64,000 nucleotides of DNA from a bacterium (GTDB taxonomy: Bacteria; Patescibacteriota; Doudnabacteria; UBA920). Shown here piece after piece: positions 9,381 to 14,250 of the stretch (its first letter is position 1; each line of letters opens with the position of its first letter). The notes under the pieces are model-generated. The model saw only the letters and a list, made by a program, of their open reading frames with translations. It was not told the origin of the DNA and ran no database searches. The translations under genes and the position numbers were made by a program. The DNA is taken from assembly GCA_016699995.1 (NCBI GenBank), contig CP064996.1:754963-818962 (forward strand), written 5' to 3'.

Positions 9381-10053
9381 CTGGCAATTCCTGCTATTAC
9401 GGCAAGCCGTAAAAGAGAAACTACCAGCTAGAAGGCATTTAACCTTTTAACTTTGAAAACTAAATAGTGGTAACGAGTTTTGCCGGTTTTAAACCAGCAC
9501 CATACTCTATTGCAAGACACTCAAACATTAACCGCGATTTGCTATTACAAATTGCTTGTCAATGATTCGTATAATCCCTTTCTAAAAAGAAAGAAATAGA
9601 TTAGAACTTTCGGTTGATTAGTATTGCTCGGCTCAATTTATTACTAAACTTACACCTGCAACCTATAAAATCGCCACTTTTTAATCCAGGCAAGCCCTTC
9701 ATAAAAAATATTGATTGAAATACGCAGTAGTCTTCTGCGAACCTTTCGTATCCCGAAGGATACAACGAAACCTAGTCTTATGGACAGCTTCGCGCTTATA
9801 TGCTTTCAGCGCTTATCTAAACTATACCTAGCTACCCCGCCATGCTCCTGAAGGAACAACGGGTACACCAGAGGTATATGCATCTCGGTCCTCTCGTACT
9901 AGAGACGCGCCCACTCAAGTTTCGTACACCCACAGCAGATAAGGACCAAACTGTCTCACGACGTTTTGAACCCAGCTCGCGTACCACTTTAATTGGCGAA
10001 CAGCCAAACCCTTGGGAGCTTCTTCACCCCCAGGACGTGATGAGCCGACATCG

Positions 10054-10431
10054 TACCTGAATCCATACTTTCATATGGTGCAGACTATATCTTCATCTTA
10101 TCAACGACGTTAGGCTGGTAGGCCATAGTCTGTTTGTTTATGTTGCTAAGCAACATGATAAGAGTCGGCGTGTTACCTTGCGCTACTCATTATGTAGCCG
10201 ACAAAGTCTCCTCTTTCGAGTCAGTCGTTACGGGGTCAACGCTAATACTAGCGCGACTTCCCACGGTATCGCCGTGTAATACTTTTCTAACATACCACAG
10301 TATTACTTACGGGTTCACCGTTATAAGCCGATTTTATTTTCTTTCTATTATATCTAGAATAGTTTTACCTATTCTAAGACGGACGAAAGACCACAGTATG
10401 AGATCGCTCTCATAGCACCCCGATTAAGTTA
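10054..10431 (-). other. About 378 nt ORF-less insertion in 23S domain V at the position equivalent to E. coli about 2499/2500. Putative group I intron or intervening sequence.
   Basis: The flanks reconstitute the conserved GGCACCU|CGAUGUCGGCUC. The insert carries an AAGATATAGTC S-element-like motif followed by a CCATA-TGAAAG-TATGG hairpin (P9-like) about 45 nt from its 3' end. There is no ORF of 60 aa or more. Confidence 0.5.
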
Positions 10432-11189
10432 AGGTGCCAAACCTTCTCGTCTATGTGGACTATTGGAGAAGATCAGCCTGTTATCCCTAGAGTAACTTTT
10501 ATCCGTTGGGCTTTGCGTCTTCCACTCGAACGCATCGGATCACTAACTTCTGGTTTCCCACCTGCGCGAGTCGCCACTCTTGCAGTCAAGCAGGCTTATG
10601 CGTTTGCACTACCAGCGCGATTTCCATCCGCGCCTAGCCTACCTTAATAAACGCCTCCGTTACCATTTAGGAGGCAACCGCCCCAGTTAAACTACCCACG
10701 AGCCACTGTCCTTGATCAGGTTAGAATCAAGTTAGAATCAACATTCACACAGGGTGGTATTTCACTATTGCCTCCATTGTCGCTAGCGCGACAACTTCAA
10801 AGGCTCCCACCTATACTAAACAGTGTAAACACTGATTCAATAACACGCTATAGTTAAGCTTCATAGGGTCTTTCCGTCTTGCTGCGGGTAGACGGCATCT
10901 TTACCGCCATTGTAAGTTCATCGGAGTGTTCGTTAAGACAGTCCTCTACTCGTTATGCCATTCGTGCGGGTCGTAACTTACACGACAAGGAATTTCGCTA
11001 CCATAGGACGGTTATAGTTACCGCCGGCGTTCATCAGGGCTTGGGCTCCGAGGTTGCCCCAGGAGCTTTGACCTTCTGACACTGGCCAGGCATCAGCCCG
11101 TATACATCAGCTTGCGCTTTAGCACGGACCTAAGTTTTTGATAAACAGTCGGGAGAGGTCATTCGCTGCGGCCTGTTTAACATGCTGGG

Positions 11190-11712
11190 TAAATGGGCGG
11201 AGACTAAAGTTTTTCGTAACCTTGACCTAGCTTGGCACCAAGCGTTTAGTTTACGATTATTTTAGACTCCGCAGCTCGTCGGAAGGAGGGTTCCGTACGA
11301 CGAACAAGAAATGGAATGGGAAGACAACCGCTAGATAGCAGTTATATTCACCTAGAAATTAGGTGAGCAAAGCCTCTTAACAACTGAGCCGGGCGGCGTC
11401 ATTGTTTTACTGCAGCTTAGAAGCTTTGCTCACCACGGCCTACCGGCACTCGCTTCACCCCCTTGAAAGTATGAGGCGGTGCTATTCTTACCTACCGGAA
11501 GAATTCCAGAATTGGCAGTATGGCCGAAACAAAAGTGGGACACACGAGAGGGATTGAACCCCTGACCTCTGCCGTATCAAGGCAGCGCTCTACCCAAGTC
11601 GTAATAACTAGGATCTACCCGGGTAGATGCCTAATCTTCGTACACTGAGCTACGTGCGTCATTAACTTTTATATTTTTCTTTTTTCCATTTACCCAGCAT
11701 GCAAACAGGCAA
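11190..11712 (-). other. About 520 nt intervening sequence in 23S at the helix-63-equivalent site (after about E. coli 1700), closed by a 24/25 bp inverted-repeat stem.
   Basis: 5' arm CCTGTTTGCATGCTGGGTAAATGG (rc of about 11688-11712). 3' arm CCATTTACCCAGCATGTTAAACAGG (rc of about 11190-11215). Nearly perfect complementarity with one bulge. The conserved 23S sequence resumes directly outside both arms. Confidence 0.65.
11530..11660 (-). ncRNA. tRNA-Ile(GAU)-like element embedded inside the 23S intervening sequence, carrying a 47 nt insertion in the D-loop.
   Basis: rc reads GACGCAC-G-TAGCTCAGT-[47 nt insert containing palindrome ATCTACCCGGGTAGAT]-GGGTAGAGC-G-CTGCC-TTGATAC-GGCAG-AGGTC-AGGGG-TTCAATC-CCTCT-CGTGTGTC-CCA. 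It has an acceptor stem, D-stem, anticodon stem with a GAT loop, T-arm GGTTCAATCC and 3' CCA. It resembles, but is distinct from, the genuine tRNA-Ile at 36229..36305. Confidence 0.5.
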
Positions 11713-13259
11713 GGTATATACCGAAGGTACACCTGCTGTATTGCCGAGTTCCTTAACGAACATTGATCCGGACGCCTTAGGATTCTCTCCTCATCCACCT
11801 GTGTCGGTTTGCGGTACGGACAGTTACACGCGTAACCACGACGCTTTTCTTGGCACCTTGGTTCACCCAAATTGCTCTTGCGAGCTTTCTCCATATCTTC
11901 GAGATTACACCAAGCTAAAGTCCCGGAGGACTTAAGCCCAGTTTGAAATTCCGGATTTGCCTAGAATTTCTCCCTACGGATACAGCGACGTACATAGTCA
12001 GAGTACGCTCAGGCTACCATGATGCGTCCCGTCTTGGATAACGCATAACTGGTCAGGGAATATCAACCCTGTTTTCCATCGGATGCACCCCTTGGGGCGC
12101 ACTCTTAGGATCGACTAACCCTGGGACGACGATCGTTGCCCAGGAAACCTTGGATATTCGGCGAAGGGGATTCTCACCCCTATATATATTACTTATTCCA
12201 ACATTCTCACTTGTGCACAGTCCACGAGCCCTTACGGGTCTCGCTTCTGCCCAGTACACAACGCTCCTCTACCGCTATACAAAAATAAATTTATGCATAA
12301 CCCGCGTCTTCGGCACCTAGCTTAGCCCCTATATATTGTCGGCGCAGGATCGCTTGACCAGTGAGCTGTTACGCTTTCTTTAAAGGATGGCTGCTTCTAA
12401 GCCAACCTCCTGGTTGTATGAGCAATCCCACATCCTTTGCACTATAGCTAGGATTTGGGGGCCTTAGACGGCGGTGTGGATTCTTCTCCATTCGACCAAT
12501 GGACCTTAGAGCCCATGGTCTAACTGCCACGTTATTTATTCATCAGAATTCGGAGTTTGGTTCGAATCCGACAGTTTCCCACCGGAGTCCGATTCAGTGC
12601 TCTACCTCTGTGAGGAACACGTGACGCTAACCCTAAAGTTATTTCGAGGAGAACCAGCTATCACCCGGTTCGATTAGAATTTCTCTTCGACCCACAGCTC
12701 ATCCCCTGTTTTTGCAGCAACAGTGGGTTCGGACCTCCCGTTGCTTTTACACAACGTTCATCCTGGCCATGGGTAGCTCACTCGGGTTTCGGGTCTAGCG
12801 CGTGCGACATTAAAGAGTATATTCAGCGTCCAGTCGAAACTGAAAACTGAATATATCTTTATACGGACTATTAATCCTCGCTTTCACTACAACTTCGTGT
12901 TTGTTAACACTTAGTTAAGCCACACACAACTAACTCGTTGGATCATTCTTCAATAGGCACGCCGTTAACCTGCGCTGCGGGCAAGCCCGAGCGTTAGGTC
13001 TTCGACTCCTTGTAAGTATATGGTTTCAGAGACTATTTCATTCCCCTTCCGGGGTGCTTTTCACCTTTCCCTCACGGTACTCGTTCACTATCGGTCACTA
13101 TGAGTATTTAGCCTTACGTATTAGTCTACGCTAATTCAGTCCAGATTTCTCGTGTCTGGACTTACTCAAGAAAAAGATCAGGAATTGTATGATGTTTCAC
13201 TATACGGGACTGTCACCCTCTTTGGTCCGCCTTTCCAGGCGTGTTCTGCTACATAGCAC

Positions 13260-13480
13260 ACTAATGTTCCTCTGCGGAATTACTGTTCCGCAACGTCAAT
13301 TCTTATAACGCCTATACTGCAACGCCAGTAAGCTTTAAATTTAATCTCGCTAGTAAACTAGTTTGAAAAAATAACACAGTAAAGGTTTGGGCTAATAGAT
13401 AATTTATTCACCAGACACCAGCATAGGTGTACGATGAATAAATTTCTATATATCTCCGCGTTCGCTCGCCACTACTAACG
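13260..13480 (-). other. About 185 nt AT-rich expansion in 23S domain I (helix 9/10 region).
   Basis: Between the conserved GGCGAGCGAACGCGGAG and ACACGCCTGGAAAGGCGGACC the window has about 230 nt versus about 45 nt in E. coli. It contains the hairpin-forming inverted repeat aatttattcacc...gatgaataaatt. Confidence 0.45.
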
Positions 13481-14250
13481 GAATCGACAAGTGCTTGCGC
13501 ACTCTTTCTTTATTTTCCTCATGCTACTGAGATGTTTCACTTCGCATGGTTCCCGCTCATTTATACCCCACGGTATAAAGGCATGCATTCTTCAAATGCA
13601 TAGGTTTCCCTATTCAGAAATCTCCGGATCAAAGGTTATTGCCACCTCCCCGAAGCGTATCGCCGGCTATCGCGTCTTTCATCGGCTCATAGTACCAAGG
13701 CATCCACCATATACCCTTCTCTGTTTTAATCTACAAGATTATACAGAATTATTTTTGGCTTGCGCCAAAAGTTTTGACAAGCAATTCGTAAAAACAAATT
13801 ACTCGTCGGATACAATGTTTGATAATTGGTTCAGTACAACATCTATTCGCTGTACTTAATTTATTATTCTCACTCTGCGAGCTTTTCAGCCCGCTTATGA
13901 TTTTACTTACAATATTGTTCTGTTGGTTGAAGACAGAACAAATTACCACTATTTAGTTTTCAAAGTACATGACTGATTTCGGCTTGCTCTATATTATAGA
14001 GCGAACTGGTGACTCGAACGACAACTTTCCAGTTGAAGATTGAACGAGGCACAGAAATATTTCCAGTCAGATAACTACTGCTCTGCTAACTAAGTTAGCA
14101 TCCGGTAACATCTCGCCTGATTCCCTAAGAATTAATGGAAGGGCTACATACCTGAGAGCAGTAAATACCTGATTAGAAAATTGTGTTTGAAAGAACGGGT
14201 GGAGAAACAAATTTTGGCGACAAAAAAACCGCAAATCGCGGTGTAAGCTA

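Follow-up and report, generated by a model that had tools for sequence, protein, structure and literature searches.

Why does one bacterial 23S ribosomal RNA (rRNA) gene exceed 4 kb, and what might become of its additional sequence once the gene is transcribed? The gene in question lies in a stretch of 64,000 nucleotides (nt) of contig CP064996.1 (assembly GCA_016699995.1, positions 754,963 to 818,962) from a bacterium placed among the Doudnabacteria of the Patescibacteriota; this whole stretch is referred to below as the window. It occupies 9597..13731 on the minus strand, a length of 4135 nt, and is matched by the Rfam model LSU_rRNA_bacteria (RF02541) over the full model (1-2925) with 2191.5 bits. 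A first-pass annotation of the window had located the gene at 9602-13733 and had proposed such a covariance-model alignment as a check; strand and size have been borne out, the ends have been refined, and the insert coordinates could be mapped from the same alignment. The gene is the single-copy-type 23S of a bacterium of the Patescibacteria, or Candidate Phyla Radiation (CPR), and its excess length stems from three different causes. The best explanation overall, which we favor by a modest margin over its being wrong, is that a domain-I segment is retained in the ribosome, that a group I intron follows U2500, and that an intervening sequence (IVS) in helix 63 (H63) is excised, although the excision and the nucleases that would carry it out are what we infer. 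The annotation had offered introns, IVSs, or expansion segments as alternatives for all of the inserts; the gene appears to hold one of each, the H63 insert being IVS-like. A tRNA-like module in the H63 insert, the non-G 3' end of the intron, and several smaller expansions had escaped the annotation.

The conserved domains of bacterial large subunit rRNA are collinear in this gene, and G2445 and the sarcin-ricin loop, used as Escherichia coli landmarks, fall into alignment. Length was measured against rrlH of E. coli MG1655 (L002:60-2963; 2904 nt), and the excess was placed by alignment to rrlH and by the Rfam alignments. The gene proved 1231 nt longer than rrlH, as the earlier estimate of about 1.2 kb over a canonical 23S had anticipated, and about 1075 nt of this fall at three main sites. 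In domain I, approximately 174 nt follow E. coli position ~287 (window ~13256..13447), so that the site given previously was correct while its span (13260-13480) and size (about 185 nt) have been reduced; Rfam divides this excess between a hairpin at model positions 274-297, which holds 116 nt, and a 25-nt hairpin slightly beyond. In H63, a 10-nt apical loop is replaced by 522 nt (11180..11701 in the alignments), offset by about 10 nt from the 11190-11712 and approximately 520 nt first reported. Beside the peptidyl-transferase center (PTC), exactly 378 nt separate U2500 from C2501 at 10054..10431, coordinates on which the annotation, the alignment, and Rfam coincide. The excess is not confined to these three sites, as had been claimed; smaller expansions of 53, ~51, 25-31 (E. 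coli ~1510), and 15 nt (E. coli ~230), together some 160-180 nt, are conserved in the lineage.

Relatives for comparison were gathered through synteny with the pyruvate kinase gene, which is situated 1.8 kb beyond the 5S gene. Its homologues are 78-84% identical in metagenome-assembled genomes (MAGs) labeled Patescibacteria group, 'Candidatus Saccharibacteria' or 'Candidatus Doudnabacteria', and the gene order 23S-5S-small open reading frame (ORF)-NTP transferase-pyruvate kinase is kept in the relatives' MAGs; both the homologues and the synteny support the CPR origin suggested at first sight. Full-length 23S genes were obtained from six relatives (L012, L011, L064, L065, L067, and L073), and partial genes from L004, L007, L014, and L071 were included in the comparison. 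The 23S cores of the relatives are 90-95% identical to that of the window. A neighboring gene of 161 amino acids had been tried as a means of finding relatives and was abandoned, its homologues not lying beside rRNA genes outside the close clade. When metagenomes were scanned for the H63 junction, no more than three contigs were recovered, all identical to L011, and diversity did not increase.

The domain-I insert (13267..13447, minus strand) is absent from E. coli and present in all six full-length relatives at near-equal length, 170-174 nt, with about 60 nt more in L065. Its identity to the window sequence is 88-90% for the closest three relatives (cores, 94-95%) and 74-79% for two that are more distant (cores, 90-94%), and unpaired stretches such as UUAUCUAUUAGCCCAAACC and UUUAAAGCUUACUGGCGUUGCA are invariant. 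RNAalifold predicts a 21-base-pair (bp) hairpin, a long-range helix around two small hairpins, and a third hairpin; in the window, hairpin A lies at 13397..13447, the long-range helix domain at 13311..13385, and hairpin C at 13270..13295, all on the minus strand. The consensus fold contains 47 pairs, 10 of which show changes on both sides with pairing kept. Thus, both the conservation of length and sequence and the compensatory change that mark an expansion segment are found here. Because the insert evolves at close to the rate of the core and with compensatory changes, as would a structural part of the ribosome and unlike a spacer, it is probably a lineage-specific expansion segment that stays in the mature ribosome.

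The insert between U2500 and C2501 (10054..10431, minus strand) is, as judged from its sequence and predicted fold, a variant, non-canonical group I intron, lacking an ORF and resembling subgroup IA. It is matched by the Rfam model Intron_gpI (RF00028) over model positions 1-253 with 41.1 bits (E 1.3e-8; gathering score, 50), and the copies of L011 and L012 score 41.9 and 33.0 bits. Copies are present in the window, L012, L067, L011, L064, and L004 and missing from L007, L014, L065, L071, and L073; in the last three of these, the site is intron-less by its spacing (~57 nt), and L007 and L014 read GGCACCU directly followed by CGAUGUCGGCUC, giving the junction GGCACCU/CGAUG. The intron-less relatives therefore fix the borders of the intron to the nucleotide and show its presence to be optional among close relatives. 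Sequence reading places an internal guide, AAUCGGGGUGC, at 10415..10425 (minus strand). Within it, GGGUGC pairs with the exon sequence GCACCU to form P1, with a U2500.G wobble at the 5' splice site, and AUCG, directly 5' of GGGUGC, pairs with CGAU of the 3' exon to form P10; P1 is also recovered by the alifold consensus in all six copies, whereas P10 is a reading of the sequence. The six-copy consensus fold recovers P1, P2, P2.1, P3-P6, P7.1, P7.2, P8, and P9, with covariation in P2, P2.1, P5, P7.1, P7.2, and P9. P7 (the ACGACUG / UAGUCUG region) comes after P6, as expected; a CAGACUA/UAGUCUG pairing within P8 had been considered for P7 and was rejected, as the Rfam alignment and the order of the helices give ACGACUG as the 5' strand. 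The position of P7.1 and P7.2 between P7 and P3' suggests membership of subgroup IA.

The 3' end of this intron departs from the group I pattern in that all six copies terminate in GUA before the exon sequence CGAUG, the last nucleotide being A and not the terminal guanosine (omega-G); in the window, the tail AUUCAGGUA occupies 10054..10062 on the minus strand. The method of drawing borders does not appear to be at fault, since the same logic applied to the intron after E. coli position 1923 in L011 gave canonical ends, U before the intron and G at its close. Nor does sliding the borders regain a terminal G, as no shift yields the junction GGCACCU/CGAUG or spares the universally conserved PTC sequence. 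Were the G at -3 to serve as the 3' splice site, a choice that GGCACCUUACGAUG would match, a UA insertion would be left between U2500 and C2501 and the contiguity of P10 would be broken; this was judged less likely. The intron must be cut out precisely, P1 and P10 aligning the canonical exon junction, and splicing would presumably proceed by guanosine-initiated, two-step transesterification with the terminal A in place of G. No similarity was found between the intron and phage records.

The first-pass annotation had stated that none of the inserts contains an ORF of 60 or more amino acids and that homing-endonuclease genes are lacking. The first statement overlooked a TTG-start ORF of 93 amino acids at 10134..10415 on the plus strand, antisense to the intron; the ORF was rejected as a gene, the corresponding open stretches shifting frame in three relatives and meeting stops in two, and from these comparisons it is a by-product of conserved ribozyme sequence. 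The second statement stands, and no conserved ORF was found in the intron. The H63 inserts of the window and of the relatives compared likewise share no conserved ORF. Elsewhere in the relatives, introns of 714-789 nt follow E. coli position 1923 in L011 and L065, and LAGLIDADG_1 ORFs are called within the 23S region of L065 and L073.

The largest of the inserts extends the apex of H63 (11181..11702, minus strand; 522 nt including a 16-bp distal stem). The strands of the distal stem, GCAUGCUGGGUAAAUGG on the 5' side (11686..11702) and CCAUUUACCCAGCAUG on the 3' side (11181..11196), pair with one another above an 8-bp base to give a carrier stem of 24 bp, all pairs of which are kept in all eight taxa. 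Three positions of this stem show compensatory change, one in the distal part (A-U/U-A/C-G) and two in the 8-bp base (U-A/C-G and G-C/U-A). The insert is found in 8/8 relatives. In contrast to the duplex, the interior enclosed by it (11197..11685, 489 nt in the window) is hypervariable: its length ranges from 353 to 886 nt, and a BLAST alignment between the window and L012 covers its first 43 nt only, with no other similarity between species. The insert is nevertheless strongly folded, with a minimum free energy (MFE) of -213 kcal/mol against -150 +/- 7 for shuffled sequences (z = -9.3).

Several elements of the predicted folds recur near the base of the H63 insert. A hairpin with CCUCC in its loop (11275..11304) is preceded by the U-rich motif UUCCAUUU (11306..11319), and both recur in L012, L067, L011, L064, L071, and L073. 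A terminal hairpin, GCGGAGUCUAAA...UUUAGUCUCCGC (11197..11272), adjoins the 3' stem strand and is among the basal features that recur across lineages, and a long hairpin, GGUGAGCAAAG...CUUUGCUCACC (11362..11434), appears in both the MFE and centroid folds and has its stem sequence repeated in L012 and L067. All of these lie on the minus strand. Read as sequence, UUCCAUUU shows complementarity to AAAUGGAA in the 5' stem strand and its extension (11686..11696), also in most relatives, and an alternative helix between the two could compete with the closing H63 stem. As a separate observation, CCUCC is the anti-Shine-Dalgarno sequence. No further copies of the insert occur within the window or the relatives' loci, and there is thus no sign of a repeated mobile element. 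Against Rfam, the inserts of the gene gave no known ribozyme or riboswitch, only the group I intron and a weak tRNA match; the matches of the H63 interior to plasmid records likewise reflect generic tRNA similarity only, the one inspected being a tRNA-Val gene.

The tRNA matches trace to an element of 124 nt in the H63 interior (11536..11659, minus strand, the rRNA sense strand), in which a cloverleaf can be read. An acceptor stem ACGCACG/CGUGUGU, with A1-U72 and G3.U70, is followed by U8 and A9, a D stem (GCUC/GAGC), an anticodon arm (CUGCC-UUGAUAC-GGCAG, anticodon GAU), a variable loop (AGGUC), a T arm (AGGGG-UUCAAUC-CCUCU), C73, and an encoded CCA. The D loop holds a 46-nt hairpin (11598..11643, minus strand; sequence reading and fold) with the palindromic core AUCUACCCGGGUAGAU. 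L012 has a different palindromic hairpin in the same place (~5520..5547), and L064 and L067 have none. The two hairpins are unrelated in sequence, and both are near-perfect palindromes, centered on CCCGGG in the window and GGUACC in L012. With the 46-nt hairpin removed, the window element has stems of 7, 4, 5, and 5 bp, a 7-nt anticodon loop, the tertiary nucleotides, and CCA, and ARAGORN calls it as tRNA-Ile(GAU) of 78 nt; the native sequence passes unrecognized by this standard finder, and the Rfam tRNA model matches only its 3' three-quarters (27.3 bits, E 0.0048; gathering score, 29). The element is not a copy of the normal tRNA-Ile(GAU) or tRNA-Ala(UGC) of the window, and a tRNA-Val(CAC) gene matches its 3' half at ~84% identity across 49 nt.

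Homologous elements stand at the same position in L012, L064, and L067, behind the conserved leader AAAGUU(W)(W)AUG. That of L067 is 76 nt long and is called by ARAGORN on the native sequence as tRNA-Trp(CCA), with G73, CCA, and a U3xC70 mismatch. The L064 element, also 76 nt and called natively, combines a canonical D arm, A73, and CCA with an anticodon loop of 6 nt, and that of L012 is degenerate, with anticodon CGC, the D-loop hairpin, a weak and mismatched D stem, and no CCA. The anticodon is therefore not conserved (GAU, CGC, a 6-nt loop, and CCA), the discriminators being C, C, A, and G, and because anticodon and identity elements vary in this way, the name 'tRNA-like element' is used here. 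In the four sequences, which are the whole sample and were aligned with N padding after the D-loop hairpins had been cut from two of them, 92.9% of cells in the cloverleaf pair, against 39-46% in slid controls; both sides have changed in 9 of the 21 pairs, and the observed scores were not reached in any of 500 shuffles. As we read the alignment, the anticodon loop drifts whereas the T loop, G18G19, and the 15-48 pair persist, the last as G-C in two sequences and as A-U in L067. From these comparisons, it is the shape and not the decoding capacity that is conserved. A covariance model built from the four homologues (R1) gives the window element 50 bits and finds no tRNA-like element in the H63 inserts of L011, L065, L071, and L073. 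The module, thus present in 4/8 lineages, is probably ancestral and lost in one subclade, because its carriers include the most divergent lineage, L064.

How the H63 insert might be handled can be proposed as follows. It would be transcribed within the rRNA and then excised without religation as an IVS, which would leave the 23S rRNA as two pieces joined by the H63 stem. A duplex of 24 bp is a classical RNase III substrate, and the long H63 duplex would be a target of this enzyme; the tRNA-like module would provide an entry point for RNase P and 3'-end processing, as do spacer tRNAs and the 'tRNA punctuation' of mitochondria. Two features of known IVSs are found here, namely that the insert takes the place of a surface helix's apical loop and that a long duplex closes it; two others are not, as the site is H63 and not helix 25 or helix 45, and all eight relatives carry the insert, so that it is not sporadic. 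Excision is the best reading of the H63 insert because a conserved duplex encloses a hypervariable interior and because insertions in CPR rRNA are generally absent from transcripts in published work, and, taken by itself, we consider it only slightly less likely than its opposite. Because the anticodon drifts and the acceptor/T-arm geometry and CCA are preserved, the tRNA-like element would act not in decoding but as a signal for RNase P or 3' processing. Its participation in the excision is proposed much more tentatively, with a probability well short of that for excision; as half of the lineages lack the module, it would be at most an auxiliary or alternative entry point.

Several points weigh against this combination of readings. 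H63 inserts without a tRNA-like element in L011, L065, L071, and L073 indicate that the element is not required for processing, and where it is present it may be ill suited to the task: the window element, with its 46-nt D-loop hairpin and C73, and the L012 copy, with no CCA and a weak D stem, may be poor RNase P substrates. The covariation of the cloverleaf comes from a sample of four. Eukaryotic expansion segments that are retained at H63 likewise combine a hypervariable tip with a conserved base. For the intron, the score is below the Rfam gathering threshold and the terminal G is missing, and the G-binding pair of P7 is apparently G-C (sequence reading), which leaves the terminal A unexplained by P7.

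The first of two alternatives that fare about equally well holds that the H63 insert is retained as a giant bacterial expansion segment comparable to ES27L, the tRNA shape being a surface feature that serves, for instance, to dock a tRNA-binding protein. The conserved stem and basal scaffold (UUCCAUUU and the CCUCC-loop hairpin) below a variable tip follow the pattern of an expansion segment, and the strong fold, the occurrence of the insert throughout the relatives, and the selection on the tRNA-like shape fit as well. Yet the interior has passed beyond BLAST recognition between genes whose cores are 94-95% identical and whose domain-I segments are 88-90% identical, the tRNA-like module is missing from half of the lineages, and CPR rRNA insertions are generally removed according to published comparisons with transcripts (PMC9297842). 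We regard retention as unlikely, though deserving of serious attention beside excision.

The second accepts an RNase III-type IVS and takes the tRNA-like element for the relic of a captured tRNA gene in neutral decay, with no role in processing. Loss from 4/8 lineages would agree with this, as would the degenerate traits of the surviving copies (two D-loop hairpins, the 6-nt anticodon loop of L064, and the missing CCA and mismatched D stem of L012) and the resemblance of the 3' half to ordinary tRNAs such as the tRNA-Val(CAC) gene. Neutral decay is difficult to reconcile, however, with a cloverleaf in which most stem positions have changed, yet 93% of cells pair and 9/21 pairs have changed on both sides; the maintenance of the T loop, G18G19, and (in the alignment as read) the 15-48 pair, as the anticodon loop drifts, points to selection on shape. 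A functionless relic is accordingly given the same low rank as retention.

It is improbable that the element is a functional tRNA gene within the rRNA gene, freed from the precursor like spacer tRNAs, at least in some lineages. ARAGORN does call the native L067 and L064 elements, the L067 element possesses G73, CCA, and a D arm and 7-nt anticodon loop of canonical form, and 16S and 23S genes are unlinked in the clade, which leaves no 16S-23S spacer to hold tRNAs. Against this, the window element carries a 46-nt D-loop insert, A1-U72, and C73 in a genome with a normal tRNA-Ile(GAU) elsewhere, the homologues have four different anticodon loops, one of them of 6 nt, and the L067 acceptor contains the U3xC70 mismatch. 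Least of all do we credit an assembly artifact or pseudogene. Breaks and misjoins are frequent where MAG contigs cross rRNA genes, and several of the relatives' contigs end within the 23S gene, but the same three insert sites appear in assemblies made independently from various samples and sources (NCBI, ENA, JGI, and Logan), no conserved 23S block is disrupted or out of order (2191 bits across the full model), and the exon sequences flanking the intron match those of intron-less relatives exactly.

Other features of the gene and its surroundings can be described briefly. Two of the smaller expansions recur in relatives: that of the H98 region (53 nt; 9670..9722, minus strand) with 49-57 nt in 5/6 relatives and that at E. 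coli ~636-655 (~51 nt; 12809..12878, minus strand) with 49-53 nt in 6/6. The classical IVS site in helix 45 has 127 extra nt in L011 alone. A weak match to the c-di-GMP-II riboswitch model (10747..10816, minus strand; 29 bits against a gathering score of 53.5) falls within conserved 23S domain V sequence and was rejected as a chance resemblance. The 5S gene (9265..9380) lies downstream of the 23S gene after a spacer of 216 nt, and the 16S gene (41605..43071, minus strand; 1467 nt) is without insertions and 28 kb distant from the 23S-5S pair, so the rRNA operon is split, with 16S unlinked from 23S-5S. tRNA-Ala(UGC) and tRNA-Ile(GAU), genes usual in the 16S-23S spacer, are found together at 35759..36305 on the plus strand, 5.3 kb from the 16S gene and on the strand opposite to it. 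The gene ligA, for NAD-dependent DNA ligase (14682..16830, minus strand), is split into ORFs of 197 and 509 amino acids by a +1 frameshift beside an A5 run, with the break near 16211..16237 and the first ORF ending in PKNINH; the gene is unbroken in L065 (711 amino acids) and L073 (687 amino acids), and the break may be a sequencing error, a pseudogene, or a programmed frameshift. Finally, NZ_AP027616.1 (L001), recorded as E. coli strain LR-72 plasmid pLR-72_4 (2911 bp), was dropped as an E. coli reference because this 2.9-kb 'plasmid' is a 23S gene not of E. coli; it consists solely of a 23S rRNA gene without the E. coli 5' end and landmarks and is likely a contaminant or a misassembled circle.

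Insertion sequences within CPR rRNA genes were reportedly described by Brown and coworkers in 2015, as later surveys cite them, and an insertion-laden 23S gene such as that of the window is a phenomenon already known for the group. The first-pass annotation was right to call it typical: 82% of CPR 23S genes contain insertions of 100 bp or more, which together average ~1.3 kb per gene, and group I introns, in many cases ORF-less and located preferentially in the 3' half, make up 45% of the insertions (Tsurumaki et al. 2024, PMC11270868). ORF-less group I introns are common in CPR 23S genes, 222 having been counted in 348 genes, the ORF-less remainder that is not intronic includes 'long sequences (500-1,000 bp) of unknown function', and CPR may also hold IVSs of the RNase III type (PMC11270868). 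Comparison with transcripts has shown most CPR rRNA insertions to be removed (as cited in PMC9297842 and PMC11270868). The window gene agrees with these surveys in both phenomenon and scale; apart from its terminal-A intron and tRNA-like module, it is an ordinary insertion-laden 23S gene of CPR type. It differs in that H63, usually shortened in CPR (Tsurumaki 2022, PMC9297842), is here hugely extended, and the surveys sort insertions by Rfam intron models and Pfam ORFs only; the main text of one contains no occurrence of 'tRNA', and a tRNA-like module in an insertion thus goes unmentioned there (PMC11270868). Roughly half of CPR rRNA insertions are neither introns nor carriers of ORFs and have no mechanism assigned, and the H63 locus would give such an 'uncharacterised long insertion' a concrete anatomy, consisting of an RNase III-like stem, a basal scaffold, and a module under compensatory evolution.

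In the literature searched, which left most subscription journals outside and is thus weak evidence of novelty, no tRNA-like module in a CPR insertion or 23S IVS was found, nor an IVS-like insert at H63, a bacterial group I intron without terminal G, or anything on 'L2500'. The proposition that would be new, namely that a bacterial rRNA IVS is processed by tRNA punctuation at H63 and that the U2500 intron represents the second natural, and first bacterial, group I lineage to splice with a terminal A, is on balance doubtful. If it is true, RNase P and 3'-end enzymes would cleave the tRNA-shaped module and the 23S rRNA would be fragmented at H63; should the punctuation and the terminal-A idea both fail, nothing but an ordinary CPR 23S gene would remain.

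The U2500 intron shares with other bacterial 23S group I introns (of Coxiella, Thermotoga, Simkania, and CPR) a P1-P10 guide with U.G, a predicted P3-P9 core, P7.1/P7.2, an optional occurrence at one exact site, and a location in the functionally critical 3' half of 23S, and differs from them in its sub-gathering Rfam score and in the terminal A of 6/6 copies. Subgroup IA occurs in phage and is reported for nearly all tRNA introns of Patescibacteria (PMC13011429). As a terminal-A precedent, the literature searched yielded only ND5-717 of hexacoral mitochondria, a group I intron occurring naturally with A at its end, whose exons are still ligated in vivo (PMC6545197). ND5-717 is giant and mitochondrial, interrupts a protein-coding gene, bears genes in P8, and is unrelated in sequence, whereas the U2500 intron is small, bacterial, and placed in rRNA; the latter would offer a compact, natural bacterial system for the second splicing step without the near-universal terminal guanosine.

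For the H63 insert, three kinds of known system invite comparison. Bacterial 23S IVSs, located in helix 25 or helix 45 in Salmonella, Leptospira, Campylobacter, and Coxiella, are removed by RNase III without religation. The H63 insert resembles them in replacing the apical loop of a surface helix, in its long perfect basal stem and variable interior, and in needing no religation, and is unlike them in its helix, its size (0.35-0.9 kb against ~0.1-0.2 kb), its occurrence in every relative, and its tRNA-like module, and its excision is a proposal. ES27L, an expansion segment that eukaryotes retain in helix 63 and that has known protein-recruiting roles, likewise emerges from this helix and is long, with a conserved base and variable distal part, but the interior of the bacterial insert is far more variable. 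Lastly, tRNA shapes act as processing signals in the spacer tRNAs of rRNA operons, the tRNA punctuation of mitochondria, the t-elements of plant mitochondria, and the mascRNA of MALAT1, and in Tetrahymena mitochondria, the large subunit rRNA is split by a tRNA gene. The H63 module is similar to these signals as a tRNA shape in a longer transcript whose acceptor/T-arm form, not its decoding, is kept, and as a putative RNase P/Z substrate; it is set apart by its position inside a bacterial 23S helix, for which the literature searched holds no parallel, and by a cleavage that is hypothetical. If the module does direct RNase P cleavage, bacteria would join mitochondria in punctuating rRNA with tRNA shapes.

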